A stretch of 64,000 nt of DNA from Dictyostelium discoideum (GCA_000004695.1 CM000152.2:544001-608000); one strand, 5' to 3'. Counted from the first letter of the stretch, positions 2,702 through 48,434 are shown. Notes: a model not told the origin generated them from the letters alone. Numbers and translations are program-made.

Positions 2702-4036
2702 TTATAGTTTTATTTGGGGTAGATTTTTATCTACCTTTTGAAGTTTCTGGTTTATTTTGTCTTCTAACTGATCTTTACTTTGTTCATTGTGTTGTTGGTC
2801 TTGTGTGTTTGTGGGGTTTTTTGATTTATTGATTTGTTTTAGAATTTCCTTGTTGAAGTTGTCTATATCTTCATCCATTTTTGTTTTTATGCTTTTTTGT
2901 CCATATTCACCCAATTTTGGTTTGACTGGTGTTTTGTTGGTCTTGTTTGTTTTGTCTTGTTGTTTCTTTTTTGGTGTGTTTAACAATTTACTTGGTGAAT
3001 CGATAATTTTCGATGGTGTACCATAGGTTGGGCTGAAACTCATGATATGTTTTATTGGAGAGGAGAAGAACCATTGATTTGAAGGGATTGAAAGTGGGAA
3101 TTCTATTTTTCTTATTGCATCAGTGTTTGGGCTGGTGAAGTCGAAGATATCATTTGCCTCTCTAAGTTTTTCTTCCGTTGTTAGTCCCTTTGTTTCGCCG
3201 TGTTGTTTTATTGGTGTATTGTATGGAGATGGTGGTTCGATAGGTTTTTCTGATTTTGTTTTAATTTCTTGATTGTTTATCGATTGTGTATTGATCTCAT
3301 TCTCTATTCTTGTTAGTTCATCTACGTTTTCTAGTGATGCTTCTATTACCTTTTGAGCTGTATCATCTAGGGCCATAAATGTTTTATCATTAGATGAGGA
3401 TGTGATTGGTGGGATAATGATTGTTCTTTTTCCTTGTTTTGGTATTTGTTCTGATGTAGATTGTGGTTGTTGTTCATCTGATTGTTTTTTATTTTTGTTT
3501 TCTTCTTGATTTTCTGGTAATGAGGTTTGATCTCTCCATCCTTTGTTGGAGTGTCCAATTAATGTTAGATTGTCTAGTTCAATGATAGTGTCAAATTCTT
3601 CTACGACTCTTTTCACTGTTTTGATAATTAGAGTTTCGCCTTTAATTTCTGATTTAATTAGTTTACATCCTTCATTTTCTATTACCCATTCTATTTCTGT
3701 GAGTGATTTATACCAATCAAAATCTGTATACATATTTTTTGGTCTTAAAGTGGTTATAAATTGTCCTTTTAATTCTGCATCAAACATATTTACAAAATAG
3801 ATTACTGTACTAATACTGTCTGTGAGAATTTTGAATGTATTATTACTTTTGATTAAAACATCTTTTTTGTCCAAACTTTTTTCTAAATCTTTTTTTATTT
3901 TATCGTCTGGTTCGTGATTGATGTTTATGACGTATTTGAATTGTTTTTTTTTTAATTGAGTTTTATCCACAATTTCGCTTATTTTTTGTAGGCATTTGTG
4001 TTGCTTAATATTTGTGGTGTTGTTTGTGATTTTCAT
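2702..4036 (-). CDS. TRE5-A-like ORF1 protein (444 aa, basic N-terminus, S/T/P/Q-rich C-terminal half)
   Basis: Intact 444-aa ORF directly 3' of A/B-modules. Its N-terminal 66 aa are duplicated exactly at 2103-2303. Size matches the reported ~51 kDa ORF1p of TRE5-A; sequence identity to TRE5-A ORF1 not verifiable here. Confidence 0.55.
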   Translation of the reverse strand: MKITNNTTNIKQHKCLQKISEIVDKTQLKKKQFKYVININHEPDDKIKKDLEKSLDKKDVLIKSNNTFKILTDSISTVIYFVNMFDAELKGQFITTLRPKNMYTDFDWYKSLTEIEWVIENEGCKLIKSEIKGETLIIKTVKRVVEEFDTIIELDNLTLIGHSNKGWRDQTSLPENQEENKNKKQSDEQQPQSTSEQIPKQGKRTIIIPPITSSSNDKTFMALDDTAQKVIEASLENVDELTRIENEINTQSINNQEIKTKSEKPIEPPSPYNTPIKQHGETKGLTTEEKLREANDIFDFTSPNTDAIRKIEFPLSIPSNQWFFSSPIKHIMSFSPTYGTPSKIIDSPSKLLNTPKKKQQDKTNKTNKTPVKPKLGEYGQKSIKTKMDEDIDNFNKEILKQINKSKNPTNTQDQQHNEQSKDQLEDKINQKLQKVDKNLPQIKL

Positions 4037-5065: not shown

Positions 5066-5137
5066 GCCGTGATAGTATAGTGGTAGTACATCAGATTGTG
5101 GCTCTGTTGACCCTGGTTCGATTCCAGGTCGCGGCAC
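5066..5137 (+). tRNA. tRNA-His (anticodon GUG)
   Basis: Cloverleaf: acceptor gccgtga/tcgcggc with one G-U pair; D-arm gtat-agtggta-gtac; anticodon stem tcaga/tctgt; loop ttGTGgc; T-arm cctgg-ttcgatt-ccagg; discriminator A. No encoded G-1 (added post-transcriptionally in eukaryotes). T-run follows immediately. Confidence 0.85.
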
Positions 5138-11789: not shown

Positions 11790-14487
11790 ATAAATTAATA
11801 ATAAATAAAAAATAAAAATAAAAAAAAAAAAAAAAACAAAATTAATAAAATTTTAATAATTAATAATATAAAAATAAAAAAAAAAAAAAAATTGATATCA
11901 CATATTAAAAAAAAAAAAAAATAAAATAAAATAATAATAATAATAAAGTGGTAATAATAATATCAAAATAAAAAAAAAAAAAAAAAAAAAAATATTAATA
12001 TAAAAAAAATATATAATAATTGATGATGCAATCTACTATGATATCTTTATTTAGTTAACTTATCAAAAATTAAAAAGGTAATATTTGACAATGTCAATGT
12101 TACAAAAAATATAAATAGTTTGAAAAAAAAAAAAAAAAAAAAAAAAAACTACTGAAAATGGTGATGGTGTAGGTTTAAATCAATTATTTTTTTTTTATAT
12201 TTTTTATTTTTAATTATACAATACTTGCACAGATTATTTGATTTTAGCGATACAGTAAATTTCAAAAAAAATTTTATGAAAATGCTGGGGTTAAAATTTA
12301 ATAATTACAAATTAATAAAATTACCCCCACTAACCTCACACGTTTTTCACTTGCTCCACTTGATCCCATTCAAATAATATTTTTTTACAAATATAAAAAT
12401 AAACTGTTGAAAACGGATAAATTGTTTGAAAAAATATATAATAACTAAAAATAACAACAATAATTTATTTTACAAATAGTCGATAATTTCATTACATCAT
12501 CTAAAAATAATTTTTTTTTTCAAACCATGATCAATCATGGTAAAACAAATTGGTATTTGTTATTATTATATAAAAATAAATTAATAAAATAGTAATAAGA
12601 AGTAAATAAATTTTTTTTTTTTTTTTTTATTAAATTATTTTTATTATTATTTTTTTATTTTTTATTTTTTTAACTTTACAAAGCATATAAACTGAAAATA
12701 AATAAATTATTTAAACATATTTAACTCATTTAACTTATTTTTATTTTTTTATTTTACGATAAATTTTGGATAGCAATAAAAAAAAAAAATTTGTTATTAA
12801 AAATTTGAGGTTAAATTGTTATTAATTTCATTAAAAAAAATTAATTCAAAAAAAAAAAAATATGAGTTGTTCAATTTCATGGTGTCAAAATATTAAAAAA
12901 CATACATTAACAATATTTTAATTAACCCACAAAAACAAATTTCCAAACACAATATTAATATTCAAACTCACTTAATTATAACCCCCATTCGCTATTTTAT
13001 CAAATTCACTATTGTAATAAACTATATAAATATTATCCCCCAAATTAATTATTTGAATTGATTTTATTTTTAATTATTTTTTTATTTTTTTATTTTTTTT
13101 TTTTTTATTTAAACAGTTACACCCCACAATTTTAATTATTAATAGGCTGATTTTGTGGGTAAAAAGAGTGGTATTTTTTTGGGTGATTGTTTTAATAATC
13201 AAATTTACAAATTTACAGTAGATGATGTTTGAAATTAAATAAATTAAAAGTGTATGTTTTATTTAATTTTTTTTTTTTTTTTTTATATTGATTTTTATAT
13301 TGATTTTTTATTATTGTTAATTGTACTTTTTAATCTCTTGTTATCATCAAACTCTACACAAATAGGTTATTTACAAAATCTATTAAAATTATTCAAATAT
13401 AGGTGTGGGTTTGTTGTGTGTGAATATATTAATATAAATTTGTGATTTTGTTATTGTTTTTAAACATTACTGTTGTTTTTTTTTTTTATTTATGTGGTTT
13501 AGAGAGTTTGAGATAGTGAGGTTTTTTAATTATGATTTCATATACAATTGAAAAAATAAAAAATATTTAATAATATGATTATGCATTATTTGATGTTATG
13601 GTTGTAAACTCGTGAGGGGGTTGGTGATTTTATAGTTGTAAAAAATTTTGCAATAAAATATATTATGTAAACTGATACTTTATACTATTGGAAAAGAAAA
13701 AAAAGAAATTAATTATACATAACACCACAAACAATTTCTATTTTCAAACACACACATGTGATATTTTTAATTTTTCATAAAAATACCTTGTGTACATATA
13801 AACAGATAGTACAATAATGAAAAAAAAGTTATCTCACTCTCTATTTAAAATAATTAACACACTTTCACCAAAATTATACACCACCACCATAAATAATAAA
13901 AATAAAAAATAGAATAAAAAAAATAACAATAATGATAATAAATAATATAATGAAACATTGGGGTTGTATAAAAAAACAATTTAAAAAAATACATACATAC
14001 ACATATTATTATTGTTAAAAAAATGTATATTTTATATTGCGTAATGGTTTTGCGGTCTTTTTAAGAATATCACTAATCAAATATGATCGACAATCCAATT
14101 ATTTTTAATTTACCATACTTTATTTTTTTTAAAATTAATTTTAATTTTATTTTATTTTTATTTTTATTTTTTTGTTTATATTTTTTTTTTTTTTGTGTAA
14201 ATATTTTTTGTATAAATATTTGATTATTTTAATTTTATTTTCATCAATTCAAAAATTAACTTTTAAATTGGAATATATTTAAATAATTTAATATTTCAAT
14301 ATATTTATTTATTTTAAATAAATAAATAAAAAAAAAAAAAAAAAAAAAAAAAAAATAATATTTATTTATTAAAAAAAAAAAAAAATCATTTAAAAAAAAA
14401 AAAAAAAAAAAAAAACAAAAAAAAAAAAAGTAGGAAAAGGAATTAGTAAAAACTAAAATCATTAGTTTAAAAATTATAACGTTGAAA

Positions 14488-14805
14488 ATGAAAATTTCTA
14501 TATTTATTTTATTACTATTTATTAGTAGTATGGTAATAATATCAGTTAATGGTATGTTTATTTTTTTTTTTTTTTTTTTCTTTATTAAATAATTGGAAAT
14601 TCTAATAATTTTTTTTTTTTTTTATTTCTTTTTTTTTTTTTAATATTTAATAGCGGAAACTGAAACCATACAAACCAATACAGCATGTGATTGTGATGAT
14701 GATTGTGATGATGGAAATAGATGGTCAACAGATATGTGTTCTGCAGGTTTACTTTTTGGAAAATATTGCACTCATACTCAAATTTGTTGTGATGATGAAA
14801 GTAAA

Positions 14806-14840
<35 letters not shown>

Positions 14841-17800
14841 CCTAAACAGTTTTTTTTTTTTTTTTTTTTTTTTCAAAACAGTTTTTTTTTTTTTTTTTTC
14901 ACTCTCTAATTTTTTAAAAAAAAAAACATATAATTTTAAACTAATAAATAAACAACATACAATTTTATACTATAAATTTTATATTATATTTTATAGATGC
15001 ATGCACAATTGATAGTTGTTCAAAAACTTCAGGTTGTGTTCATACCCCAATAAATGTGGATGATAAAAATCCATGTACAATTGATTCATGTATCAAAGGT
15101 TTTATTTCACATACTCAAATCTCTTGTGATGATAAGAATGCTTGTACAATCGATAGTTGTGACTGTTCATCAGGTTGTCAAAATAAACCAATGTCCTGTG
15201 ATGATAATAATCCATGTACCGTAGATTCTTGCAATAATTCAACCGGTTGTCGTAATACCCCAATCAGTGTAGATGATAATAATCCATGCACAATAGATTC
15301 ATGTTCAAAATCAACTGGTGTAGTTCACATTCCAATCAATGTCGACGATCTTAACCCATGTACAATTGATGCATGTACCAAAGAAGGTGGTGTTACTCAT
15401 ACTCCAGTCAATGTTGATGATAATAACAAATGTACCACTGATTCATGTTCGCTATTTACAGGTATAACTCACACTGAAATCTGTTGTGATGATAATAATG
15501 CCTGTACAGATGATTCCTGCTCACCATCAACTGGTTGCGTAAATACCCCAATTTCTTGTGATGACAAAAACCCATGCACCGTAGACTCTTGCAACAATTC
15601 AACTGGTTGCTGTTATACCCCAATCAATGTTGATGACAATAATCCATGTACCATCGATGCCTGTACTAAATCAACAGGTGTCACCCACACTCCAATCAAT
15701 GTCGATGATAATAACCAATGTACAACTGATTCATGTACCAAAGAAGGTGGTGTAACTCATACTCCAGTCAATACTGATGATAACAATCCATGTACTGTTG
15801 ACTCCTGCTCACCATTTACAGGTGTTTCTCACACTCCAATCAATGTTGATGATAATAACAAATGTACAATTGATGCATGTACCAAAGAAGGTGGTGTAAC
15901 TCATACTCCAGTCAACACTGATGATAACAATGCCTGTACCCTTGATTCTTGTTCACCATTAACTGGTGTCACTCATACCCCAATAAACTGTGACGATAAA
16001 AAGGCCTGTACTGTAGATTCATGTTCAAATTCAACTGGTTGCGTAAATACTCCAATTTCCTGTGATGATAATAATCCATGTACTGTTGATACCTGTGATG
16101 ACTCAACCGGTTGTTGCAATACTCCAATCAATGTTGATGATAATAATCCATGTACCGTAGATGCCTGTACCAAATCAACAGGTGTCACTCATACCCCAGT
16201 AAATGTAGATGATAATAACAAATGTACAATTGATGCATGTACCAAAGAAGGTGGTGTAACTCATACTCCAGTCAATACTGATGATAACAATGCCTGTACT
16301 CTTGATAACTGTTCACCATTAACCGGTGTCACTCATACCCCAATAAATTGTGATGATAAAAAGGCCTGTACTGTCGACTCATGTTCAAACTCAACTGGTT
16401 GCGTAAATACTCCAATTTCCTGTGATGATAATAATCCATGTACTGTTGATTCTTGTGATGACATAACTGGTTGTTGCAATACTCCAATCAATGTTGATGA
16501 TAATAATCCATGTACCGTCGATGCCTGTACCAAATCAACAGGTGTCACTCATACCCCAGTAAATGTAGATGATAATAACAAATGTACAATTGATGCATGT
16601 ACCAAAGAAGGTGGTGTAACTCATACTCCAGTCAATACTGATGATAACAATGCCTGTACACTTGATTCCTGTTCACCATCAACTGGTGTTTCCCACACCC
16701 CAATTAACTGTGATGATAGTAATCCATGTACCGTAGACTCATGTTCAAATTCAACCGGTTGTGTAAACACTCCAGTCAATGTTGATGATAATAATCCATG
16801 TACTGTAGATGCTTGTACCAAATCAACAGGTGTCACACATACCCCAGTAAATGTAGATGATAACAACAAATGTACAATTGATGCATGTACCAAAGAAGGT
16901 GGTGTAACTCATACTCCAGTCAACACTGATGATAACAATGCCTGTACAATTGATTCTTGTTCACCATCAACCGGTATTTCCCACACCCCAATCAATTGTG
17001 ATGATAAAAAGGCCTGTACAGTTGATTCATGTTCAAATTCAACTGGTTGTGTAAATACTCCAATTTCCTGTGACGATAATAATCCATGTACTGTTGATTC
17101 TTGCGATGACTTAACTGGTTGTTGCAATACTCCAATCAATGTTGATGATAATAATCCATGTACCATCGATGCCTGTACTAAATCAACAGGTGTTACTCAT
17201 ACCCCAGTCAATGTAGATGATAATAACAAATGTACAATTGATACATGTACCAAAGAAGGTGGTGTAACTCATACTCCAGTCAATACTGATGATAACAATG
17301 CCTGTACCCTTGATTCCTGCTCACCATCAACTGGTGTTTCCCATACCCCAATAAACTGTGATGATAATAATAAATGTACTGTAGATTCATGTTCAAACTC
17401 AACTGGTTGTGTAAATACTCCAATTAACTGTGACGATAGTAATCCATGTACCGTAGACTCATGCAATAATTCAACTGGTTGTGTAAACACTCCAGTCAAT
17501 GTTGATGATAATAATCCATGTACCGTCGATGCCTGTACCAAATCAACAGGTGTTACTCATACCCCAGTCAATGTAGATGATAACAACAAATGTACAATTG
17601 ATGCATGTACCAAAGAAGGTGGTGTAACTCATACCCCAGTCAATACTGATGATAACAATGCCTGTACAATTGATGCATGTACAAAAGAAGGTGGTGTAAC
17701 TCATACTCCAGTCAATACTGATGATAACAATGCTTGTACCCTTGACTCCTGTTCACCATCAACTGGCGTTTCCCACACCCCAATTAACTGTGATGATAGT

Positions 17801-19918
17801 AATCCATGTACCGTAGACTCATGTTCAAATTCAACCGGTTGTTGCAACACTCCAATCAATGTTGATGATAATAATCCATGTACTGTAGATTCATGTACCA
17901 AACCAACAGGTGTCACTCATACCCCAGTCAATGTAGATGATAACAACAAATGTACAATTGATGCATGTACCAAAGAAGGTGGTGTAACTCATACTCCAGT
18001 CAATACTGATGATAACAATGCATGTACCCTTGATTCCTGTTCACCATCAACTGGTATTTCCCACGCTCCAATTAACTGTGATGATAGTAATCCATGTACC
18101 ATAGATTCATGCAATAATTCAACTGGTTGTTGCAACACTCCAATCAATGTTGATGATAATAATCCATGTACCGTAGATTCATGTACTAAATCAGGTGGTG
18201 TCACTCATACTCCAGTCAATGTCGATGATAATAACAAATGTACCACTGATGCATGTACTAAAGAAGGTGGTGTAACTCATACTCCAATCTCTTGTGATGA
18301 TAATAATGCCTGTACAATTGATTCATGTTCAAACTCAACTGGTTGTGTAAACACTCCAATTAGCTGTGATGATAGAAACCCATGTACTGTTGATACATGT
18401 ACAAAAGAAAAAGGTTGTCAACATTCCCCAATCGATACTGATGATAGTAATAAATGTACCATTGATGCTTGTTCTTCAACCACTGGTGTAACTCATACTT
18501 CAATTAACTGTGATGATAACAATGCTTGTACATTCGATTCATGTTCAAACTCAACTGGTTGTGTCAGTACTCCAATTTCATGTGATGATAAAAATCCATG
18601 TACCTTGGATTCTTGTGACAAAAAGACAGGTTGTTGTAATACTCCAATTAATGTTGATGATAATGACAAATGTACCACTGATTCATGTACCAAAGAAGGT
18701 GGTGTAACTCATACTCCAATCTCTTGTGACGATAACAATGCCTGTACAACTGATTCATGTTCAAAATCAACTGGTTGTGTAAATAAACCAATTTCTTGTG
18801 ATGATAGTAATCCATGTACCGTAGACTCATGTTCAAATTCAACCGGTTGTTGCAACACTCCAATCAATGTTGATGATAATAATCCATGTACCACTGACTC
18901 ATGTACCAAATCAGGTGGTGTAACTCATACTCCAGTCAATGTTGATGATAATAACAAATGTACCACAGATTCATGTACCAAAGAAGGTGGTATAACTCAT
19001 ACTCCAATCTCTTGTGATGATAATAATCCATGTACACTTGACTCATGTTCACCAACAACTGGTTGTGTAAATAAACCAATGAATGTTGATGATAATGATG
19101 CATGTACAACCGATACATGTAATAAAGATGGTACCATCACTCATACACCAATCAATACAGATGATAATAACAAATGTACATTAGATGCTTGTTCACCAAA
19201 GACTGGTGTAACTCATACACCAATCAATTGTGATGATGGAAACAAATGTACAATCAATAGTTGTTCACCATCAGTTGGTTGTATCTCAACACCAGTTTCA
19301 TGTCCAAAACCAAAAGATAAATGTTCAATCTCTCAATGTGATTCAGCCAAAGGTTGCATCGAAGTCCCAATGAATTGTACCTCTGATAAATGTAATGAAG
19401 CATCATGTTGTGATGGTGTTTGTACCTCAAAACCAATTAGCTGTCCAAAACCAAAGAATAAGTGTCAAGTTGCAAAATGTGATTTAATTAAAGGTTGTAC
19501 CGTCTCAAATGTAGTATGTGATGATGGTAATGCTTGTACCGAAGATTCATGTTGTTCAGACACTGGTAAATGTCAATTCGAACCAATCAAACTTCCAAAG
19601 AATAAAAACAAATGTATCATTTCAAAATGTGATCCAATTAAAGGTACAATCACCAACAGTACCGTAAACTGTGAATGTGATGACCTTTGTAACATTGGTG
19701 AATGTTGTGAAGATACAGGAAAATGTAATTACAGACAAAAAGATTGTGATGATAATAATCCAAAAACAGCTGATAGTTGCGATTCCAAGACTGGTAAATG
19801 TATTAACAAACCATATAATGTTATCACAAGTGGTTCTAATTTAATCTCTGGTTTAATTGGTGGTCTCATTGGTGGTGGTACAGGAGGTAAAGGTGATTGC
19901 AAAACTTGTAAAAATTAA
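14488..19918 (+). CDS. Giant secreted Cys-rich protein built from ~60 tandem 24-aa Dictyostelium CTDC repeats (ecmA/ecmB-type extracellular matrix/slime-sheath protein family); 3 exons 14488..14551, 14654..14800, 14997..19918
   Basis: Signal peptide MKISIFILLLFISSMVIISVNA. Repeats of form (N/S)(V/C)DDNNPCTxDxCxKxTGVTHTP(I/V), matching the C-T-x-D-x-C Dicty_CTDC consensus. C-terminal ~200 aa has a different Cys pattern (CPKPKDKCSISQCD...). Phase-1 introns with GTATGT/GTAAAA donors; ORF 15056..19918 is open for 1620 codons. Confidence 0.8.
15056..19250 (+). repeat. Coding tandem repeat array, 72-bp unit (24 aa) with higher-order 288/360-bp periodicity
   Basis: Reverse-strand spurious ORFs recur at 360-bp and 288-bp offsets (15973/16333, 16909/17269, 17701/17989); many near-identical blocks, e.g. 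PCTVDACTKSTGVTHTPVNVDDNNKCTIDACTKEGGVTHTPVNTDDNNACTLDSCSP. Confidence 0.85.
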
Positions 19919-22463: not shown

Positions 22464-24419
22464 TTAGATTTTATTTTCTTTTTGTAATTTTTGTAAATGT
22501 AATTTAATATTTCCCAATGCCATAAATGATAAAGTTGGTTCAAGACTACCATAAACGATATCTAAGATTTCAGTGAGTGAAGTTTTACCAGATTTATAAG
22601 CATTTAAGATTTCTTCTTCACGAAGTAAACGATGCTTGATGTAATTATTTAAGAGGACGATTGGATCGAAATTTAAAGGACCATGAGCAGGAATTGCAAC
22701 CTTTGGACAAAGATAATTGATCATACCATGAGTGCTATCTATATATTCAACCATATCACCTGTATGAAAATCCAATACTGAACTACCGAAACCAACAATA
22801 TGATCACCAGCAATCAAAGTTTTACTATTATTCTCAAAAAGACACAAAGAATCATCAGTGTGACCAGGTGTTGAAACTATATGAAAAATTCTATCACCAC
22901 CATTACCAATGTAAAGCTTTTCATTTGTATGACAATCCAATTGTTTAATTTCAGTTGGAGTTTTAATTTCATTTAAAAAGCTATCAACACTCTCTTTATC
23001 CTTTAATTGAAAACCAGAAACTTGTACCTTTTTTAAACCACTTTCAATATTCTTTAAAGTTTTCTCATGAGCATAAATTGTTGCCTCTGGGAAATGTTTC
23101 TCTAAAATACCAATACCTTCCCAATGATCTTTATGATTATGTGTAATGAAAATTGATATATTTTTACCTTCTAATATTTTTTTATTTTCTTCTTCTTCTT
23201 CTTCTTCTTGTTGTTGTTGTTCTTCTTCTCTTTGTTCATTATTAACATTATTTGAATTTTCATCATTTTTAATTTCAATATTATTTTTAATAAACTTTTT
23301 TAAATATTTTAATAATTTCTTTTCTATTATATTACACATATGAATAGAACCTTCTTTATTTGCACCAGGATCAACTAAAAGTATATGAGTATCATTTTGA
23401 GAGATGATTAGATTGGTTGAATTGAATGGATGTAAAGTGTTTGAACGTACTGGTATACTTTCAATATGAGGAGCGAACTCCAATGGTATAGTGATACCAA
23501 GGTTATTTTTATCTTCACTGATGGTCAATAGGTCATTGTTTGTCTTTGAGAATAGTGATAACATCTTTAGGAGATATTGTGTTTCTGGTGTAATGAATTT
23601 ACGATGTGAATTGAATTCCCTCAAGAATTCCATTGGTTCCTTCCATTCCATTGAAATCTCCAATGTTTTCTCTTTGGTACCACCTGATGATGCTGGATCC
23701 GTTGGTGATATTGAATCCACTAAAATAGTCTCCAATTTATTCTTATTTATACAATTACTATCTTTAACAATTATTAAATAATAATCGAAATAACATCTCT
23801 TCACTTGTTCCAAATAATATGGTGTTACCAATGATCCTAAATAATAAATATTATCACGTTTAAATGAATTTTTATTATTAAATACTTTTTCAATTTTATC
23901 TAATTGTAATTGATTTGAATAAAATTTATTATTTAATAATAATTTTTCATTATTACAACAGTTTTTATTTGATAATGAATCTTTTTGTTGTAATTGTTGT
24001 TGTTGTTGTTGTTGTTGTTGCTCATGTAATTGAGTTGGTTCTGGTGATGTTAATGATGGGAAACCAAAGAAACTATGTGGCACAGCTTTATATAATTTAT
24101 TTATATTATTTTTAACCATTAAAACTTTATTATTATTTTCATTGTAAAATAATAAACTAGAGTATGTATTCATTTTATTATTATTATTATTATTATAGGT
24201 ATTATTATTTTTATTATATATTTTATTATTATGACAACTTTCACTATAATATCTTTTTAAAATATCTGTTTTAGGTTGTTGTTTTTGTATTTGTTGAGAA
24301 TTTAATTTAATAATATTGTTTTTTCTAAATATTTTATTACTATTATTTCCTATACTATTACAAATAGAGGTATTTATTTGTACTGTTGTCGAATAAAAAA
24401 AAGAAAAAACCTTTATCAT
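22464..24419 (-). CDS. Metallo-beta-lactamase-fold protein, LACTB2-like, with ~330-aa N/Q-rich low-complexity N-terminal extension
   Basis: HxHxDH motif FITHNHKDHWEG, then TPGHTDDS, GDHIVGFGSSVLDF, PAHGP. C-terminal ILNAYKSGKTSLTEILDIVY...GNIKLHLQKLQKENKI aligns with human LACTB2 (...HNLLLHLKKLEKEGKIF). Single 651-codon ORF. Confidence 0.75.
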   Translation of the reverse strand: MIKVFSFFYSTTVQINTSICNSIGNNSNKIFRKNNIIKLNSQQIQKQQPKTDILKRYYSESCHNNKIYNKNNNTYNNNNNNKMNTYSSLLFYNENNNKVLMVKNNINKLYKAVPHSFFGFPSLTSPEPTQLHEQQQQQQQQQLQQKDSLSNKNCCNNEKLLLNNKFYSNQLQLDKIEKVFNNKNSFKRDNIYYLGSLVTPYYLEQVKRCYFDYYLIIVKDSNCINKNKLETILVDSISPTDPASSGGTKEKTLEISMEWKEPMEFLREFNSHRKFITPETQYLLKMLSLFSKTNNDLLTISEDKNNLGITIPLEFAPHIESIPVRSNTLHPFNSTNLIISQNDTHILLVDPGANKEGSIHMCNIIEKKLLKYLKKFIKNNIEIKNDENSNNVNNEQREEEQQQQEEEEEEENKKILEGKNISIFITHNHKDHWEGIGILEKHFPEATIYAHEKTLKNIESGLKKVQVSGFQLKDKESVDSFLNEIKTPTEIKQLDCHTNEKLYIGNGGDRIFHIVSTPGHTDDSLCLFENNSKTLIAGDHIVGFGSSVLDFHTGDMVEYIDSTHGMINYLCPKVAIPAHGPLNFDPIVLLNNYIKHRLLREEEILNAYKSGKTSLTEILDIVYGSLEPTLSFMALGNIKLHLQKLQKENKI

Positions 24420-24793: not shown

Positions 24794-24914
24794 TTATTTT
24801 AAATTTAAAATTTTATGAAAATCTTTTTGTTCAAATAAATCATTATTGGTACCTAAATTTAAATTATTATTATTATTATTATTATTATTATCATTATTAT
24901 TATTATTATTTTTG

Positions 24915-24958
<44 letters not shown>

Positions 24959-26217
24959 TTTGTCATTATTATTATTACTATTATAATTAAATTTTAAAGC
25001 AGTTTGACCAAAAGTATTATCACCAAAAACATAAATATCATTATTGATTGATTGAGCTAATGTATGTTTAAAACCTGAAGTAATTTTTTTAATATTTGAT
25101 AATGATTGAATTTTCTTTGGTGAATAATGATTCTCATTTGTACCATGACCTAAAGAACCACCATCATTCCAACCCCAAGAATAAACGGAACCATCGGTGG
25201 TGATATAGAATGAATTTGCATGATCACCAGCGAAAATCGATTTAATTTTATTACCAGCAGCATTATCTCCAGTGGATTTAATTCTTTTTGGTATGTAATG
25301 ATTCAAAGTGTCATTCTCGCCATGACCTAATTGACCGAATTCGCCGTATCCAAAAGTGTAGATTTCATTATCATTGGTCAAAAACATTGAATGATAACCT
25401 CCACATGCTATATCCACTATTCTGCTCTCATTATTATTAAGTGTGAACGTTGTTATCTTTTTTGGTGTATAAATATTCTCTTTATCATTCGATCCTACAC
25501 CATGACCCAATGCACCAAAATAACCATTGCCCCAACTATACAATGAACCATCATTACCCAACAATAAATTATGGTCACTACCTGAACAAATCTTTTTAAA
25601 ATCTTTAAATATTGGATCGGTCTCTTTTAAAACTTTAATTGGTTTTGAGTAATATTCATCCTCTGATGGTGACGATGGTGATGATGATTTATCCTTTACC
25701 CTCTCTCTACCACCTAATTGATTCTTATGATTTCTACCCCATCCATAGATACCATCATCTTTAGTTACAACTAAACTATGTTCATATCCACTAACTATTG
25801 ATATAATATTATCATTGAATTTTTCAATTTTATATACCTTTTCATTATTATTATTATTATCGTCGTCATCATCAATGCTTCTACCAATACCCAATACTCC
25901 ATATTTTGATTTACCAATTGAATATAATTGATTATCATCTTTAGTTTGTAATATGATAAAATTACCACCTAAAGAAACATTACTAATCTTTTTATCGTTA
26001 TTAATTTTAATTTTGTTTGGTACTTCTGTGACTAAATTCGAATATAAACCCCAATGATAAAATTCATCGTTTTCATTGATTATACCTGAATGATAGGCAT
26101 TTGCAAATATATCCTTTGCCTTCAACCCATTCAATTTTATTGGTAACTCAGTTTCACTTATAAATTCAAATTCTTCTGTACCATCATCAAAATAAACTAT
26201 TTCATTATCATCTTCGT

Positions 26218-26249
<32 letters not shown>

Positions 26250-26338
26250 GGATCTACTATACAATTTACTTTATGATAAAAGTTAATTATTAAAAACAAT
26301 GTAAATATAAAATAAATAAAATTATTATTGTTTTTCAT
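24794..26338 (-). CDS. RCC1-repeat (7-bladed beta-propeller type) protein with N-terminal signal peptide and poly-Thr/poly-Asn tracts
   Basis: MKNNNNFIYFIFTLFLIINFYHKVNC leader. At least five RCC1-like repeats (YSWGWNDGGSLGHG, YTFGYGEFGQLGHG, YSWGNGYFGALGHG, IYGWGRNHKNQLGG, YSIGKSKYGVLGIG). 514-codon ORF. Confidence 0.65.
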
Positions 26339-27284: not shown

Positions 27285-28943
27285 TTAAATTTTTACAGAT
27301 ACTAAATCACTTTCTTGTAATTTTTTATCTTTATTAAAAGTTGAAGGAATATCAATGGTTGACCAAGATTGATGAACTTGTGGTATAATGAAAGGACGTA
27401 ATTTAGCTAAACGAGTACCTTCAGTTGGGAGTTCAGAGATATCATCTATCGATGGCACAACTTCATAGCCAATTAAGACATTCTCTCTTTCTAATCTTGC
27501 TAAAGTTGCATCAATGATTGGTTGTAATTGTTGAGTTGGTTTTTGTAATGATTGCTGAGTCAATGTTATTGAAACGCAAGGTCTAATTAAAAATAGTGTT
27601 TGTTTCAATTGATGTTGTGCTTTCTTACAAGTGGCGATTGATTCACCATATTTGTGAGTTGCATTCTGTTGAAAAGCTTGTTGGTTCCATGCTAACGATT
27701 GATATAATGATACTTTGTATTGTAAGAAATTTACAAACTTTTCCAAACGATTCTCAACCAACTTCTCCTCGGTGAAATGTGAGATCAACATATCCATTGC
27801 CTCTTTATAAATATTTGCTGTATCAACTGCCAATTTAACAATTGGTTGAATTGTATTCTTTTTATATGCACGTCCAATCGTCAACTCTTGTGCTTGTCCA
27901 ATACATTGTAAATATAATGATCTTAATAAAACATCATTAAAATCTGTTGATGATTTATCACTACCTTTTAAAATTTTACCTGCATTATCATCAACAACAT
28001 CATCATCACCACCACCATCTTTTTCATCTTCACCAGATTCTGTTTTTTCTTCCTTTTTATCCTCTTCTTCTTTTTTGGAGGATGATGATAAATTTAATCT
28101 TAATTTACAAAGATAATCAAAAATACCAGCAGATTTTAAAAGAAAATCATAAACTTTTTGACGATCTTCTTCAGGTAAACCATCAGTTGGTGAACAACGA
28201 TTTGAAACGATATATTCTGAATAACCTAAATACCAAATACCAAGATTAAATAAAATACTCATATATTCAACCAATGTATCTGAGGAAGTGATTGATCTAT
28301 CTGAACCAAATACATTTGTCCAACTGAATCTTAAATTCTTTCTAATTGCATCACTACCTTTATTATTATTATTCTTTACTTTTTCATTATTAAATTTCTC
28401 TAATTTATCATCACCCTCTTCAGAGTTATACTCTTCATCATTATCTCTTGGTTGTTCATTTAATTGAAGTTTTTCAAAATTTGATACTGGAGTTGCTGTT
28501 GCTGCTGTTGTTGCTGCTGCTATATTATCAGTAGTAATTGTTGGTTGATATACTTTTGAACCAATTAACCCACCTAATAATGAACAATAAGTTTCAACTG
28601 ATTTTAATAATTCTGCTGTATCAACTATTTTATATTATTATTAATAATAATAAAAAAATTAATATAAAGTAGTTTATTTATTTATTCATATTATTCATTC
28701 ATTCATTTATTTATTTATTAATTTATTCTTACTATTTGTTAAATCTCTTGCTTTGGTTGAAAAGAAGAAATTATCGATATTATCAGAAGCATCACTTATA
28801 TCTTTAGCCAAACTAACAATGAATGGATTTGATGCTTCTTTACATAAATCAACTAATTTGCTTTTATAGTTTAATTTTGATCTCATCTTTAAACGATGAA
28901 TATAAAAGCAATAATTATCGAAAACTGGTAATGTTCCTTCCAT
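27285..28943 (-). CDS. BRO1-domain-containing protein (Alix/BROX-like), 2 exons 28943..28733 and 28615..27285 (513 aa)
   Basis: BRO1 signature LRFSWTNVFGSDRSITSSDTLVEYMSILFNLGIWY (matching F-W-D-F ... E-x-x-x-L-F-N). The 117-bp intron (gtaagaat...ttacag) joins ...DLTN to TELLKSVETYCS... in frame. Confidence 0.6.
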
Positions 28944-29779: not shown

Positions 29780-32700
29780 ATGGGAAAAGTATTAATACTT
29801 TTTTTATTTGTATTATTATTAATAACTTTTATTAATTGTACTAATAATAAAATATTAAACAATGAAAACTCTTCAAATGAAGATAATGTAATAAATGTAT
29901 TTTTAATTCCACACTCTCACTGTGATTTAGGTAAAGATTAATCTTTTATTATTTAGATTTTTTATTTTTTTTTTTTATTTTTTTTTTTTTTTTTTTAAGA
30001 ATGGAATTTTATTAATTTTAATTAATTTTTAAATAGGATGGGTACAAACACTAGAAGAATATTATTCAGAAAATGTAACAGTAATTTTAGATAATGTTAT
30101 AAATACATTAATTAAAGATTCAAGTAAAAAATTTAATTGGGCAGAGATTTATTATTTTGAAACATGGTGGAATGAACAATCATCATTCCTCCAAGCTCAA
30201 GTTAGGAATTTAGTAAACAATGGACAATTATATTTTGTTGGTGGTGGTTGGGCACAAAATGATGAGGGTGCAACTCACTATCAAGCAGTTATCAATCAAA
30301 TGACATTAGGCCACCAATTTTTGTTATCAGAATTTGGCGTGGTTCCAGAGATTGGCTGGCAGATTGACCCCTTTGGACCATCAACTTTAACAGCCACACT
30401 CTTCTCATTGATGGGGTTCAAATACCATGTTATCAATAGAATAGATGAACGTATTAAATATATATACAATGATACACCCGACATTGTGGGATCGGGTTGG
30501 ATGACGACTGACAGGTCCTTCGAGTTCCAGTGGTATCCATCGCATAATGACCAAGAGCTGTCCATTTTCACACATGTGTTAGACCACCATTATAACTCGC
30601 CCTATTTGATATACCCAAATGCAAGCAACCCAAATCAGTCGTTAACTACCGGGTTCGATTTCGAGTCTGATCCCACACAAAATCCGCCCATCAATCAATC
30701 CAATATCTACGAGAGGGCAGCTGTATTTGTGGAGATCATGCAGCAACGGTCTCAATTGTACAGACATAACAATTTACTCATACCATTTGGCAATGATTTT
30801 AGATTCCAAAATGCGTCGTTGGAATTCGACAATATGGATAAACTGATCACCTACATCAATTCCAACTCGTCGTGGGGTGTCACTATTCAATACGCAACGT
30901 TGAATGAGTATTTTGAAAAGGTAGAATCCATAGAACCACCTGTTGAATACGCCGACATCGTCGGTCAGGACCTATTCGTTTATACAATGTGTTTGGCGTC
31001 GGATTACCAGGCATTCAATACTTGTGCAAATTGGTGGTCTGGCTATTACACCTCTTATCCATTACTAAAACAGACTGCAAGAGATTCTGACTCACTATTG
31101 AGAGTTGGTGAGATGTTGTACTCGTTGAGTTGTTTCTATTCAAATGGCTTCGATTTTGATTTTAATATTGGTTTCTACGCATTAAGCATGCATAGAAATG
31201 TGAGTGGAATACTAACACATCACGATGCTATCACTGGCACTGCCAAGGAGTACGTACGGGTTAACTATTTCCAAATGTTAAACGAAGCACAGTCGTTGAC
31301 TCTAGACTACAACATACCCGATTTCGTTGGATTTTTATTATCAAATAAATCATTAAATATTGATTACCAATCTAACGGTTCCTCTATATTGAATTCGACA
31401 AATCCTGGTGACATCATTGCAATCTCATTCACCAATAGTATAGCTTGGGATAGAATTGAAACCGTCTCTATAGAAATTCCATTTGTTAATATGGCCGTAT
31501 ACGACTACCAATTAAATCCAATTCAATCACAAATTGTACAACGTTTTGATAAATCAAATAATTGGTATCTTTATTTCCAAGTTGCAACACCAGCATTAGG
31601 TATTTCAACCTATTTCATTGTAATACTTTCAACAGATGGTGAAATATTAAATGATAATTCTAAAAATTTACCAACTCCAATTCAATCAATTTTATCAATT
31701 TCAAATGAATTATTATTTAATGATAATGATGATGAAACTACAACAACCACAATTGGTAATTCAAATTTTAATTTAAATTTTAAATTTGATAGAGATAATA
31801 ATAATCTTTTAACATTAAATAGCTATGATGATTTATTTAATAATAAAATTGGAATTCCAATTAGTCAACATTTAATTGAATATACATCATTAAGTGATGA
31901 TGCATATAAATTTAGAGTTCAAGGATTACCAATACCATTAACACCAATTAATCCACAATTTTATTTAACAATTGGTCCAGTTGTACAAATTGTAACTATA
32001 ATTTATAATAATAATTGTTCACAATCTTATTTAATTTATAATGATACAACTTCATTTAATCCATTTGAAACTGATAATGATAATAATAACAATTCAAGAT
32101 TAATTAAAAATGATCAATATTTTGAAATTGATAATATTGTTGCATCAGGATGGGATAAAGAGATATCAATGAAATTTACAACAAATATTAATAATCAAAA
32201 TATATTTTATACAAATAATGGTTTAGAAATTATGAAAAGACAATGGGAAATTCATTGGAATGATACTTTTATTTGGAGTGAAATCACTAGTAACTTTTAT
32301 CCAATGATTAACACTGGTTATATAGTTGATCAACAAGTTAGTGATTATCAACAGCAATTAACCATTTTATCAAAACAAACATTTGGTGCAAGTTCTCAAA
32401 CAAATGGTGAATTTGAAGTATTGTTAATTCGTCGTTCAAATTATACTCAATGGTCAGTACATGAACCAATGAATGATACAAGTAATCCTTCGTTAAGAGT
32501 GTTGTGTATATTTGGTGATCCAAATTTTAGTAATGAAATTCGAACTCCTCATTCAATATTATTTGAAAATCCATTACAACCAGTTTATTCATTAATTCCA
32601 AACTCAATACCAATTGAAAAATATATTGATACTTATAATACACTATTTAAACCATTACAAACTTCATTACCATACAATTTACATCTATTAACTTTTACAA

Positions 32701-32993
32701 AACAATGGATTGATTCACCTTCAATTATAATGAGATTAATTAATATTTATGAAATTGGTCAAAGTATTAATTTTTCAAAATCAATTAATTTTAATATTGG
32801 TAGTGGTGATAATAACAATAACAATAATAATAATAATAATAATGGTTTTTTAACTCATTATAATATTTCTCAAATTATTGAAACTACATTATCTGCAAAT
32901 TCTGAATTATCAAATCCAACAAATAATTTAGTAATTACTCTCGAACCTTTAGAAATTAAAACATTTTTATTAACATTATCACCAAAACAATAA
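29780..32993 (+). CDS. Lysosomal-type alpha-mannosidase, glycosyl hydrolase family 38; 2 exons 29780..29930, 30037..32993 (1035 aa)
   Basis: Signal peptide MGKVLILFLFVLLLITFINC. Motifs VFLIPHSHCDLGW, FVGGGWAQNDEGATHY, GWQIDPFGPS and HDAITGT are hallmarks of GH38. Phase-1 intron has gtaaag donor at 29931 and ag acceptor at 30035-30036. Several GH38 paralogs (manA-like) exist in Dictyostelium, so no symbol is assigned. Confidence 0.85.
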
Positions 32994-33937: not shown

Positions 33938-35437
33938 ATGATTGAAAATGAAAAAATAGTTGGAGAAAATGAACCATTATTATTAAATGAAAATATAAAT
34001 ATATCAACAACAACAATAACAACTAGGAATAATAATGAAAATTTAAATAATAATAATAATTCAAAATTATCATTTTTTTTAATATTTAATGTTTCATTTT
34101 CAGTATTAAGTACATTACAATTTGGATATAATACAGGTGTTATATCACCAACTATTTTAGATATACAAACTATATTTGGATTAAATGTTAATGAAAAATC
34201 AATGTTAGTTAGTAGTGTATTATTTGGAGCAATGTTGGGATCATTTTTATCAGGATTCTTTGTTGATATTTTTGGTAGAAAAAAGACACTACTTGGAAAT
34301 AATTTATTTTATTTACTTGGACCATTGTTATGCTCAGTTGGAAAAAACTATGCAACTCTATTGATTGGTAGATTAATAACGGGTGTTGGCGTTGGTATTG
34401 CGTCATCGGTTGTGCCATTATATATTACAGAGATATCACCACCATCATTTAGAGGTTCATTAGGATTACTTAGACAAAGTACAGTGACATTGGGTATTAT
34501 GTTATCGTCATTGTTTGCCTATGGTTTATTAGTTTATTCAAATGGTTGGAGATACACATTCGCAATTGCGTCGATTCCATCACTATTTCAATTCATACTT
34601 GGTTATTGGTTTGTTGAGTCACCAAGATGGCTAGTTTCAAAGAATAGAGAGGATGAAGCTAAACAAATAATGAAAAAGATTGAACCACACGTTAGTGAAG
34701 ATTTAATAGATTTACAAATCACTAGAATTCGGTCAAGTGTTTTAGAACAAAAAGGAAATGACAACTGGTTACAGTTATTCCAATATCAGTATTTAAAAAT
34801 CTATATCATTGGTTTCGGGTTAAATATGCTTCAACAATTTGTTGGTATCAATTGTGTTATCTACTATAGTGGTATAATATTGGAGGATGCAGGGTTCGCC
34901 AAGAATGCTGCCGTGTTAATTGGTGCATTGGTTGGTATACCACAATTGGTGATGTTGTTGATATCAGTTTGGTTAATTGATAGATTCGGTAGAAAACCAT
35001 TACTACTTGTTGGTTGCATTGGTATGATCATTGGTTTGGCCGTATTGGGTTACCCATTCTATGATAACTCAAATCCAACTGGTAAAATTGATAATACTAA
35101 AAAAGGTTGGATCGCTGTTGCTGGTATGATTTTCTTTAAACTTATGTTTTCAATGGGTCTTGGTCCAATACCTGCTTTAATCGGGTCAGAGATTTTCCCT
35201 TCAAAAATTCGTGGTAAAGCAATGGCAATCTCTCAACTCTTAAATTGGGCTGCAAATTGTATTGTCAATTCAATGTATTTACATATGGTAAATTCAAAAC
35301 TTGGTCAAGCTGGTACTTTCTGGTTCTTTGGTGGTATTTCTATCATTACATTTTTCTTTGTTTTAATATTAGTACCTGAAACTAAAAATGTGCAAATTGA
35401 AGAACTTTCAAAAAGATTACTTTTAAAAAATAAATAA
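33938..35437 (+). CDS. MFS sugar (hexose/GLUT-like) transporter, 499 aa
   Basis: 12 predicted TM segments. Sugar-porter motifs GRKKTLL, VESPRWL, GxxxGPIPALIGSEIFPSKIRG and VPETKN. Single ORF. Confidence 0.8.
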   Translation: MIENEKIVGENEPLLLNENINISTTTITTRNNNENLNNNNNSKLSFFLIFNVSFSVLSTLQFGYNTGVISPTILDIQTIFGLNVNEKSMLVSSVLFGAMLGSFLSGFFVDIFGRKKTLLGNNLFYLLGPLLCSVGKNYATLLIGRLITGVGVGIASSVVPLYITEISPPSFRGSLGLLRQSTVTLGIMLSSLFAYGLLVYSNGWRYTFAIASIPSLFQFILGYWFVESPRWLVSKNREDEAKQIMKKIEPHVSEDLIDLQITRIRSSVLEQKGNDNWLQLFQYQYLKIYIIGFGLNMLQQFVGINCVIYYSGIILEDAGFAKNAAVLIGALVGIPQLVMLLISVWLIDRFGRKPLLLVGCIGMIIGLAVLGYPFYDNSNPTGKIDNTKKGWIAVAGMIFFKLMFSMGLGPIPALIGSEIFPSKIRGKAMAISQLLNWAANCIVNSMYLHMVNSKLGQAGTFWFFGGISIITFFFVLILVPETKNVQIEELSKRLLLKNK

Positions 35438-42380: not shown

Positions 42381-43653
42381 ATGGTAGAATCACCAAAAGT
42401 TAGAAGAACATCATCAAGTCAAAGATTATATAATAATAATATTAAATGGGTTACTGTTAGACCATCAACAGATAATAATAATAATAATAGTAGTCAAAAA
42501 AGAAGTAGTAATATAAATATTTTTACAGGTGAAAGCCACCAACCTGAAGAATTTGAAATTGAAAGCCATGGAAGTAGTAGTAGTATTGGTACAAGTTTAG
42601 ATGAATATAATCAACATTATTTACAAGCACAACAACACCAACACCAACACCAACAACATAAACATATATTTGGGTCATCATTTGTTGATTTATCCGGTTT
42701 CACACCAAATAGTTTTGAATTCAAATATCCATCAGTTGGAAATTCTCCAAGTGTAACTGTTTCATCATCATTATCACTATCATCGTCAATCATGGGTACA
42801 AGTTCTGGTAAAAGTAAATTATCATTGGACACTTGGAAACTTGCCAATCCAGATTCCACAATTACAATTAAAAAAATAAAAACAAGTCCACGTGGAAGTA
42901 AAGAAGATATTTTTAATGCTGATTCCGAACAACAACCACAATCATCACCACAATTACAATTGCCATTACATCCACAACCACAACCACAATCACAATCACA
43001 TATAACTAGTAATGCTAATGCACCACAATCTTCATTTAATAAAGTACAACCACAAGGACAAGAACCACAATCAGTTGTAAATAGAACTAGATCAAGACAA
43101 TTATCTAAACCACCAGTTTTCATTCAACAATTTCAAAATCATCATCATCAACAACAACAACAACAACAACAACATCAATTATCAACATCTCAATCATCTG
43201 CATCATCATTAATTTCACATACTCAAAGAAGATTATCAAGAGCAAAACAACATCAAGTTGAATTTAATAATAATGGTAATGGAAATAGTAATAATGGTAA
43301 TGGTGAAAAAGTACATTTACAACATGCATTGGTTTTATATAGTTTTGATGCTGATCTTGAAGAAGAATTAAATTTAATTAAAGATACTACAATCATTGTT
43401 GTTGAACAATGTGCTGACGGTTGGTGGAAAGGTAGACATTTAGATTCCACCAAAGTTGCTACTTTCCCTGCAAATTATGTTAAATTAATACCATCATTAT
43501 TACCACAAAATAATAATAATACTACTACCACATTACCATCATCGTCATCATCAACTAATACTACTACTACCACCACTAATAATAATAATACACCAACATC
43601 AATTGATCAACAAATTCAATTATTAAATAAAAAAAGATCAGAATCACTTTCAA

Positions 43654-43713
<60 letters not shown>

Positions 43714-45783: not shown

Positions 45784-48434
<2,651 letters not shown>

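Follow-up and report, generated by a model that had tools for sequence, protein, structure and literature searches.

What is the giant cysteine-rich repeat gene in this part of the Dictyostelium discoideum genome, and how did its array of repeats reach its present form? The window analyzed is a stretch of 64,000 nucleotides (GCA_000004695.1 CM000152.2:544001-608000), and the gene occupies positions 14488–19918 on its plus strand. The joint reading, which we consider almost certain, is that the locus is ecmA (DDB_G0277853), the DIF-1-inducible prestalk marker, that it encodes a secreted matrix repeat protein and that its array grew and was homogenized by the exchange of blocks. The identity, the gene model, the repeat and super-repeat architecture, the silent-site and mosaic signatures and the hairpin prediction come from this analysis; the regulation by DIF-1, DimB and MybE, the prestalk expression, the matrix location and the tensile-strength phenotype are taken from the literature. 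Work on the ecmA gene, historically named pDd63 or ST430, goes back to the late 1980s and includes its cloning, sequencing and knockout; the gene has served throughout as the standard marker of prestalk cells, and the 24-aa cysteine-repeat nature of its product is textbook knowledge. As an ordinary gene that had been described before, ecmA itself offers nothing new.

The coordinates given in the first-pass annotation are exact, with an ATG at 14488 and a TAA ending at 19918. The product length that it gave, 1,680 aa, had to be corrected, as the spliced coding sequence of 5,133 nt encodes 1,710 aa. This length agrees with that of UniProt P12729, which we take to be 1,710 aa. The gene consists of three exons and two GT..AG introns, all on the plus strand. 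Exon 1 (14488–14551), delimited from the sequence and a reading of the splice sites, contains the start codon and a signal-peptide-like hydrophobic N-terminus (MKISIFILLLFISSMVIISVN...). It is followed by intron 1 (14552–14653; GTATGT...AATAG), which is 102 nt long and strongly AT/T-rich and on whose removal the frame stays open. Exon 2 (14654–14800) completes the signal peptide and then encodes a Cys-rich N-terminal segment outside the repeats (aa 23–66, 7 Cys) and the start of unit 1 of the array (from 14788). Intron 2 (14801–14996; GTAAAA...TTATAG) is 196 nt long and carries a 32-nt repeat of a T-run and CCAAAACAG in 2.6 copies at 14818–14899 (TRF). Exon 3 (14997–19918), 4,922 nt in length and open throughout, holds everything that follows in the coding sequence, from the remainder of the array through the C-terminal module to the stop codon. 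The N-terminus, MKISIFILLLFISSMVIISVNA/ETET, resembles a signal peptide by eye, and the earlier description of the protein as secreted appears to be right in kind. The precursor has a mass of ~178 kDa, and the mature chain is acidic, with a calculated pI of 4.2.

The Pfam profile PF00526 (Dicty_CTDC) matched the product in 61 stretches with 1711 bits (E = 0), compared with a gathering score of 27 bits, so membership of the family holds. The array comprises 60 in-register 24-aa (72-nt) Dicty_CTDC units (aa 67–1505; 14788–19300, plus strand), as delineated by PF00526, the unit list, the column profile and TRF, with intron 2 lying inside unit 1. The C-T-x-D-x-C repeat of 24 aa that had been described at the outset was thus recovered in 60 units in register with a conserved core: none of the 60 units departs from D2, D3, C7, T8 or C12, and only one lacks D10. 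Unit 2 has 23 aa and the remaining units have 24; units 3–60 follow one another at an exact spacing of 72 nt, with no junction anomalies. TRF reported both a 72-nt period (54.5 copies, score 2028) and a 360-nt period (11 copies, score 2706).

The longer period reflects a higher-order core at units 14–46 (15917–18292, plus strand), in which seven blocks, each of 5 units (360 bp) or 4 units (288 bp), are accompanied by the singleton unit 38. When each unit is assigned to a type, the core reads CDEBA CDEBA FGBA FDEBA FDGBA. FGBA FGHA. Blocks are 93–96.5% identical, compared with 68% for neighboring units (lag 1). Units 14–18 and 19–23 form 360-bp blocks with 95.6% identity; among the 288-bp blocks, the identity is 96.5% for units 15–18 vs. 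20–23 and 95.1% for units 24–27 vs. 39–42; and over the 144 bp of units 17–18 vs. 22–23, it reaches 99.3%. The first-pass annotation had called many units and super-units nearly identical. The 288- and 360-bp super-units do exist at the identities given; for the units, the overall mean identity is 68.5%, 28 of the 1,770 unit pairs are at least 95% identical, and two pairs (18 and 23, 40 and 54) are identical at 100%.

Downstream of the array, the C-terminal module (aa 1506–1710; 19301–19915, plus strand) contains about seven degenerate derivatives of the 24-aa repeat and a Gly-rich tail. Three PK.K.KC...KCD..KG units alternate with CC-containing units, and the tail ends in ...GKGDCKTCKN. A distinct Cys-rich module (CPKPKxKC...) had been proposed for this region; it is present, but it is a degenerate form of the array's own repeat rather than an unrelated domain, because a profile of the 60 units finds six further matches there, in the 24-aa register (best i-E 2e-7). 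A search of the protein collection with the C-terminal 210 aa found no close relatives and only two weak bacterial matches.

Could the similarity between units of the same type simply reflect constraint on the protein together with a strong codon bias, in an ancient expansion that underwent no recombinational homogenization? The codon bias is strong (TGT 190 vs. TGC 25, GAT 193 vs. GAC 25, and CCA for 107 of 107 prolines), many protein columns are invariant, and codon usage by itself predicts that 63% of the codons would be shared at identical residues. However, we observed that units of the same type share 86.7% of these codons, compared with 69.4% for units of different types. Nor does constraint alone predict the gradient from the center of the array to its edges, where the mean best-partner identity falls from 94.5% (units 10–47) to 79% and 85%, or the discordance of the nearest relatives from slot to slot within the mosaic blocks, as in block 28–32. 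The A-units of six blocks differ by 0–3 nt, whereas the other slots in the same block pairs differ by 3–23 nt. Furthermore, unit identity peaks at lags of 4, 5, 9, 10 and 14, and these 4- and 5-unit periodicities require block duplication. On the silent-site excess, the gradient, the mosaic blocks and the periodicity, we rejected constraint as the only source of the similarity and consider it improbable. The very low divergence of the A and B units, on the other hand, could in part be due to constraint on those units and not to conversion.

Taken as signatures in the sequence, these results support an array history that would include unequal crossing-over and/or gene conversion, and the first-pass proposal of such processes is borne out for past exchange by the silent sites, the center-to-edge gradient and the mosaic blocks. 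The best blocks still differ by 3.5–7%, so that the latest exchanges need not be recent ones. The array resembles satellite-type arrays under unequal crossing-over in its nested periodicity (72 nt in 288/360 nt), its homogeneous center and its mosaic blocks. Unlike the general model of such arrays, it is protein-coding, in frame and under purifying selection, and its blocks are 93–96.5% identical and not above 99%.

Are the repeat count and the higher-order pattern products of the assembly, with blocks collapsed or mis-joined and the true gene longer or rearranged? Such an artefact would be favored by 288–360-bp blocks that are up to 96.5% identical and by an exon 3 in which only 76% of the 31-mers and 89% of the 51-mers are unique, and the in-frame loss of whole 72-nt units would be invisible in the reading frame. 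However, no exact repeat is longer than 140 nt and no 141-mer occurs twice, so that collapse would be unlikely with Sanger sequencing or long reads; between any 360-bp block and the copy most like it there are at least 15 differing positions, enough for such reads to place the block; and the exon is open over its whole length, with normal junctions between regularly spaced units 3–60. An assembly artefact was rejected on the 141-mer uniqueness, the block differences and the regular junctions, and we judge it to be very improbable. The concern about short-read collapse that had been raised for this array is weak for the sequence as given, although assemblies of reads no longer than 100 nt at a small k would still tangle, given a 31-mer uniqueness of 76%.

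As read from primer matches in the sequence, the gene at 14488–19918 is ecmA itself and not merely an ecmA-like gene. The published ecmA qPCR primers (PMC3085826, Fig. 6) each match once with 0 mismatches, at 19662–19685 (plus) and 19769–19791 (minus), and face each other across a 130-bp amplicon (19662–19791, plus strand) in the non-repetitive 3′ coding region. Similarly, the primers of an ecmA-promoter ChIP assay for DIF-1-induced DimB binding (PMC3107940) each match once, correctly oriented and with 0 mismatches, at 14035–14057 (plus) and 14071–14096 (minus), and delimit a promoter segment at 14035–14096 (plus strand). The ChIP amplicon was published as the “region −453 to −417” (PMC3107940); the forward primer begins at 14035, which is 14488 minus 453, in agreement with the published offset of −453 from the ATG, and this placement confirms the ATG at 14488. 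No differences from EcmA were detected by the tests run (primers, promoter offset and architecture). The initial assignment to the ecmA/ecmB family was correct in so far as the product is a PF00526 matrix repeat protein, but the primer matches indicate that the gene is ecmA and not just another member. Although 11 Dicty_CTDC proteins are found in D. discoideum (PMC4931340, Table 4), EcmA and EcmB are close paralogues and a second PF00526 gene lies in the same window (~50979–51745, minus strand), it is barely conceivable that the gene is instead ecmB or one of about ten other Dicty_CTDC genes, a reading largely refuted by the primer results, as neither of the ecmB-specific qPCR primers (same figure, PMC3085826) was found in the window even at 3 mismatches and the ecmA coding and promoter primers each match once, exactly and with the published spacing from the ATG.

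A homology search of the protein collection with the full protein recovered bacterial and MAG PF00526 proteins and one Physarum transcript and no dictyostelid orthologue, and neither the 1,710-aa product nor the 1,620-aa exon-3 ORF had an exact match in that collection. Consequently, the evidence for ecmA is that of four primers, taken from two papers of a single laboratory. In the literature, ecmA is listed as DDB_G0277853, with a signal peptide followed by Cys-rich repeats (PMC4406040). EcmB (ecmB, DDB_G0269132; ST310) has in common with EcmA the repeat family, the arrangement of a signal peptide and repeats, the DIF-1-inducible prestalk expression and the matrix function, and the two genes are said in the literature to stem from a recent duplication. 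The bacterial PF00526 proteins, from Myxococcota or “Deltaproteobacteria” MAGs and from Bacteroidota with PF18962 T9SS sorting domains, contain long arrays of the same 24-aa repeat and are up to ~50–55% identical to EcmA over hundreds of residues, with E values down to 1e-264. In these proteins, which are presumably surface-located or secreted, the repeats are joined to PKD-like, CHRD, IPT/TIG, LTD, proprotein convertase P-domain and T9SS C-terminal sorting domains. Unlike EcmA, they have neither its C-terminal module nor a link to DIF or prestalk regulation.

The units fall into two cysteine classes, with 36 of the 60 carrying two cysteines and 24 carrying four or five. C1 and C18 occur strictly as a pair: 24 units have both, 36 have neither, and no unit has just one of them. 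Five cysteines are found in 8 units, each of which is always followed by a two-Cys unit. In the literature summary, by comparison, EcmA has “over 20 copies” of the repeat with 5 cysteines each, which understates the array. For annotators, the analysis adds the exact 1,710-aa, three-exon model and a unit count (60 regular, ~7 degenerate) to replace the “over 20”. It also adds the explicit 4-/5-unit higher-order pattern, with evidence of past inter-block exchange, and the division into 36 and 24 units with the strict Cys1/Cys18 coupling, to which a hairpin-per-unit model, confident as a prediction, can be joined.

In this AlphaFold2 model, which covers units 14–23, the predicted fold of every 24-aa unit is a single beta-hairpin whose strands span unit positions 8–13 and 17–22; the mean pLDDT is 93.8, a value that may be optimistic, as the input alignment consisted of paralogous, overlapping slices of the same protein. 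We infer the disulfide pairing and, for the extra Cys19 in eight units, the formation of intermolecular cross-links. A PDB sequence search with the protein returned no match. Among solved structures, the best match to the predicted hairpin array was the Cys-rich region of the Entamoeba histolytica Gal/GalNAc lectin heavy chain (PDB 9gjf_H, 9gjc_H and others), with a Foldseek E of 6.8e-8 and a probability of 1.00, both of which describe local 3Di similarity. Both proteins are amoebozoan extracellular Cys-rich repeat rods. On the other hand, the global TM-score is 0.17–0.18, the rmsd is 35–47 Å and the sequence identity is 15–19%. Judged from the predicted model, the likeness is one of local building blocks, short of homology or a common function.

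Could the array still be exchanging blocks, with copy numbers that differ between strains, as the first-pass annotation had proposed? We hold it possible, though rather unlikely, that it is, that wild strains differ in the number or order of the 4- and 5-unit blocks, and that the C1/C18 coupling and the patterned placement of the five-Cys units serve a function by design and did not simply arise as blocks were duplicated. If exchange were ongoing, strains would differ in the ratio of two-Cys to four-/five-Cys units and in the count of the odd Cys19 available for intermolecular cross-links, and the mechanical properties of the sheath and stalk tube would vary heritably. Repeat numbers that vary among wild strains would make ecmA a modest case of repeat-driven variation in a matrix protein of a simple multicellular organism.

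How would such a protein work in the matrix? The literature describes prestalk expression, a location in the slime sheath and stalk tube and a tensile-strength phenotype. Morrison (1994) reportedly found that sheath mechanics are not normal in ecmA-null cells. In the mechanism that we propose, ecmA transcription in prestalk cells would be driven by a long upstream promoter, with the DimB-bound region ~450 nt 5′ of the ATG as one of its parts, and the three-exon mRNA would yield a 1,710-aa precursor with an N-terminal signal peptide. The mature EcmA would be an elongated chain of ~67 short modules, 60 regular and ~7 degenerate, with Cys7 and Cys12 in every unit and, in 24 of the 60, the strictly coupled Cys1 and Cys18 as a further pair. 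After secretion into the slime sheath and the stalk tube, EcmA, stabilized and cross-linked by disulfides, would add to the tensile strength of the cellulose-containing matrix. The array itself would have grown and been homogenized by the duplication of 4- and 5-unit blocks (288/360 bp), followed by inter-block unequal crossing-over and/or gene conversion.

The regulation of ecmA by DIF-1, DimB and MybE is known from the literature (PMC3107940 among the sources). The MybE consensus AACWGTT has 19 matches, compared with 16.9 expected, a count that is uninformative. A site matching this consensus lies at 13112, within the expected distal promoter region, and two such sites lie inside the repeat of intron 2.

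Could the repeat gene at 14488–19918 on the forward strand be ecmA itself? The exact product has no entry in the protein collection searched, and the only matches listed in a homology search were bacterial or MAG PF00526 proteins and one Physarum transcript. We probed the identity of the gene with published oligonucleotides mapped onto the window. The ecmA qPCR primers (PMC3085826, Fig. 6) each matched once, without mismatch, at 19662–19685 (+) and 19769–19791 (−), delimiting a 130 bp amplicon in the part of the 3′ coding region that is not repetitive, and none of the ecmB primers given in that figure legend was found in the window at up to three mismatches. As independent evidence, the ecmA-promoter ChIP primers, described as "region −453 to −417" (PMC3107940), matched without mismatch at 14035–14057 (+) and 14071–14096 (−); position 14035 is 453 nt upstream of 14488, so that the published promoter numbering also confirms the ecmA start codon. 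On the evidence of these exact matches without those of ecmB, the locus is ecmA of D. discoideum (DDB_G0277853 according to PMC4406040) and not merely a relative. The first-pass annotation, which had assigned the gene to the ecmA/ecmB family, was right about the family but stopped short of the gene. The ecmA gene, its product, regulation and function are all already known; the map of 4- and 5-unit blocks, the division of the units into two cysteine classes and the model of one hairpin per unit refine its description.

The window has a G+C content of ~20% overall, rising to 34–38% at 16–20 kb, and one long forward-strand ORF spans 15056–19918. By our reading of the 5′ end, ecmA has three exons (14488–14551, 14654–14800 and 14997–19918, all +), separated by introns at 14552–14653 (GTATGT..AATAG) and 14801–14996 (GTAAAA..TTATAG). 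Both gene ends from the first pass, 14488 and 19918, proved exact, but the spliced CDS of 5,133 nt encodes 1,710 aa rather than the 1,680 aa proposed. The product has a calculated mass of 178 kDa and a calculated mature-chain pI of 4.2, and 12.6% of its residues are Cys; its N-terminus, MKISIFILLLFISSMVIISVNA and then ETET, reads like a signal peptide that could be cleaved off. Intron 2 contains 2.6 copies (14818–14899, 96% identity) of a 32-nt unit made up of a T-run of ~23 and then CCAAAACAG, each copy terminating in a polypyrimidine tract plus AG, like a 3′ splice site. The MybE consensus AACWGTT has 19 matches in the window, two of which (14845 and 14877) lie inside these copies; both they and the splice-like ends are probably incidental.

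PF00526 (Dicty_CTDC) is the Pfam family of the 24-aa repeat and is named after ecmA. The Pfam search that had been singled out as decisive for membership matched 61 stretches of the product and scored 1711 bits, where 27 bits is the cut-off. With the register anchored at the DD...CT.D.C motif, 60 in-register units span aa 67–1505, each of 24 aa except unit 2 (23 aa), with exact 72-nt spacing across units 3–60 and with D2, D3, C7, T8 and C12 invariant (60/60). Tandem Repeats Finder returned 54.5 copies at a 72-nt period and 11 copies at a 360-nt period, the latter scoring higher, and the mean nucleotide identity between units was 68% at lag 1, with peaks at lags 5, 4, 9, 10 and 14. Clustering at ~86% identity gave the unit-type string .....A...BA.ACDEBACDEBAFGBAFDEBAFDGBA.FGBAFGHAD....A.GHA...., from which the blocks CDEBA, CDEBA, FGBA, FDEBA, FDGBA, FGBA and FGHA can be read. 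Both of the super-units reported from the first pass are present, as 4-unit (288 bp) and 5-unit (360 bp) blocks. Units 14–18 and 19–23 are 95.6% identical over 360 bp, 15–18 and 20–23 96.5% over 288 bp, 24–27 and 39–42 95.1% over 288 bp, 19–23 and 28–32 93.1% over 360 bp, and 17–18 and 22–23 99.3% over 144 bp. The description "nearly identical" suits single units, two pairs of which are fully identical (18 = 23 and 40 = 54), but the blocks agree at 93–96.5%.

Identical residues share a codon in 86.7% of cases between units of the same type, compared with 69.4% between units of different types and 63% predicted from codon usage; the similarity is therefore more than protein constraint plus codon bias. 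A homogeneous centre with divergent edges is the classic gradient under unequal exchange, and the mean best-partner identity was 94.5% for units 10–47, 79% for units 1–9 and 85% for units 48–60. Furthermore, block 28–32 is a mosaic, in which the first unit is nearest to block 24–27, the B unit to block 33–37, and the two Cys-rich units to blocks 14–23. The A-units of six blocks are 0–3 nt apart, compared with 3–23 nt at the other places in the same block pairs, and 15 of the 16 differences between blocks 14–18 and 19–23 fall within the first 216 nt (P = 0.003 in a binomial test, uncorrected for the choice of segment). Codon sharing, the gradient and the mosaic blocks support a history of repeated past exchange by unequal crossing-over or conversion; the first-pass annotation had put this process forward as ongoing, which goes further than the three results.

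Could the repeat count have been altered by collapse in the assembly? An in-frame loss of whole units would leave no trace, and only 76% of the 31-mers of exon 3 are unique, so a small-k short-read assembly could tangle here. However, the longest exact repeat in exon 3 is 140 nt, all 141-mers and 98.3% of 100-mers are unique, the reading frame is open throughout the 4.9-kb exon, and no fewer than 15 positions distinguish each 360-bp block from the copy closest to it. Given the unique 141-mers and at least 15 differences per block, Sanger-length or longer reads can place every block, and collapse is unlikely.

In the C-terminal module (aa 1506–1710), three PK.K.KC...KCD..KG units alternate with units that contain CC, and a Gly-rich tail follows. 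A profile of the 60 regular units matched it six times in the 24-aa register (best independent E 2e-7 and 3e-7), so that the module, previously called distinct, derives from the same repeat in degenerate form. The protein collection, which apparently lacks dictyostelid proteomes, yielded no close relatives of the module.

The cysteines follow a more ordered pattern than the "5 cysteines each" of the literature summary would suggest. In 35 units only C7 and C12 are present, and unit 2 adds C24 owing to its 23-aa register; C1, C7, C12 and C18 occur in 15 units, with C19 in a further 8 and with C14 in 1. C1 and C18 are jointly present in 24 of the 60 units, jointly absent in 36 and never single, recently duplicated units being non-independent observations in this count. 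Such strict coupling suggests that the disulfides in Cys-rich units would be either C7–C12 plus C1–C18 or C1–C7 plus C12–C18; C19, left over by either pairing, might then form intermolecular links. For units 14–23, an AlphaFold2 model whose alignment consisted of paralogous slices of the same array confidently predicts one β-hairpin per unit (strands 8–13 and 17–22, 9-residue linkers), with a mean pLDDT of 93.8; its pTM of 0.55 fits an elongated chain. A sequence search of the PDB with EcmA found no matching entry. By Foldseek, the closest solved fold was the Cys-rich region in the heavy chain of the Gal/GalNAc lectin of Entamoeba histolytica (E 6.8e-8; TM 0.17, 15–19% identity), which the modelled hairpins resemble only locally.

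Among DIF-1-inducible prestalk genes ecmA is the prototype, with a cap-site-distal (ecmO) promoter region directing expression in pstO cells and a cap-site-proximal (ecmA) region in pstA cells, and its promoter is bound by DimB and MybE (literature including PMC3085826 and PMC3107940). Short CA/GT-rich, relatively G+C-rich islands punctuate the AT-rich sequence at 12900–13640 (~−1590 to −850 from the ATG), where the distal region is expected; examples are ACCCACAAAAACAAATTTCCAAACACA (~12926), AACAGTTACACCCCACAA (~13112), TTTTGTGGGTAAAAAGAGTGG (~13152), GGTGTGGGTTTGTTGTGTGTG (~13402) and GAGGGGGTTGGTG (~13615).

The neighbouring genes are ordinary and unrelated to ecmA, and include a G8-domain protein (32–1240, −), tRNA-His(GTG) (5066–5137, +), a metallo-beta-lactamase-fold protein (22464–24419, −), an RCC1-repeat protein (24794–26338, −), a BRO1-domain protein (27285–28274, −), a GH38 alpha-mannosidase (30300–32993, +), two MFS/sugar transporters (33938–35437 and 38370–39695, +), an SH3+ArfGAP protein (42381–44822, +), a protein kinase (46072–46692, +) and a PPR protein (57284–58879, −). 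The segment 2001–4000 is strongly AT-skewed (−0.455), and its G+C is raised to 0.29; a 444-aa ORF at 2702–4036 (−), without a match in Pfam, may be coding sequence that is of low complexity or rich in repeats.

Another PF00526 gene, much shorter than ecmA, lies ~31 kb downstream of it (50979–51745, −). Its listed ORF of 227 aa has 7 Pfam stretches (185.7 bits), and on the upstream side the frame continues open across a Thr-run (NATTTTTTRYC). This gene is not a recent copy, as exon 3 of ecmA shares no 25-mer with any other part of the window. Among the matches listed from 5.8 billion protein clusters, the best to EcmA are bacterial, including Myxococcota/"Deltaproteobacteria" MAG proteins, with identities of up to 50–55% across hundreds of residues. 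Others of these bacterial proteins pair the repeat with PKD-like, CHRD, IPT/TIG, LTD or T9SS sorting domains. Despite its name, the Dictyostelium repeat is thus plentiful in bacteria, including fruiting-body-forming myxobacteria.
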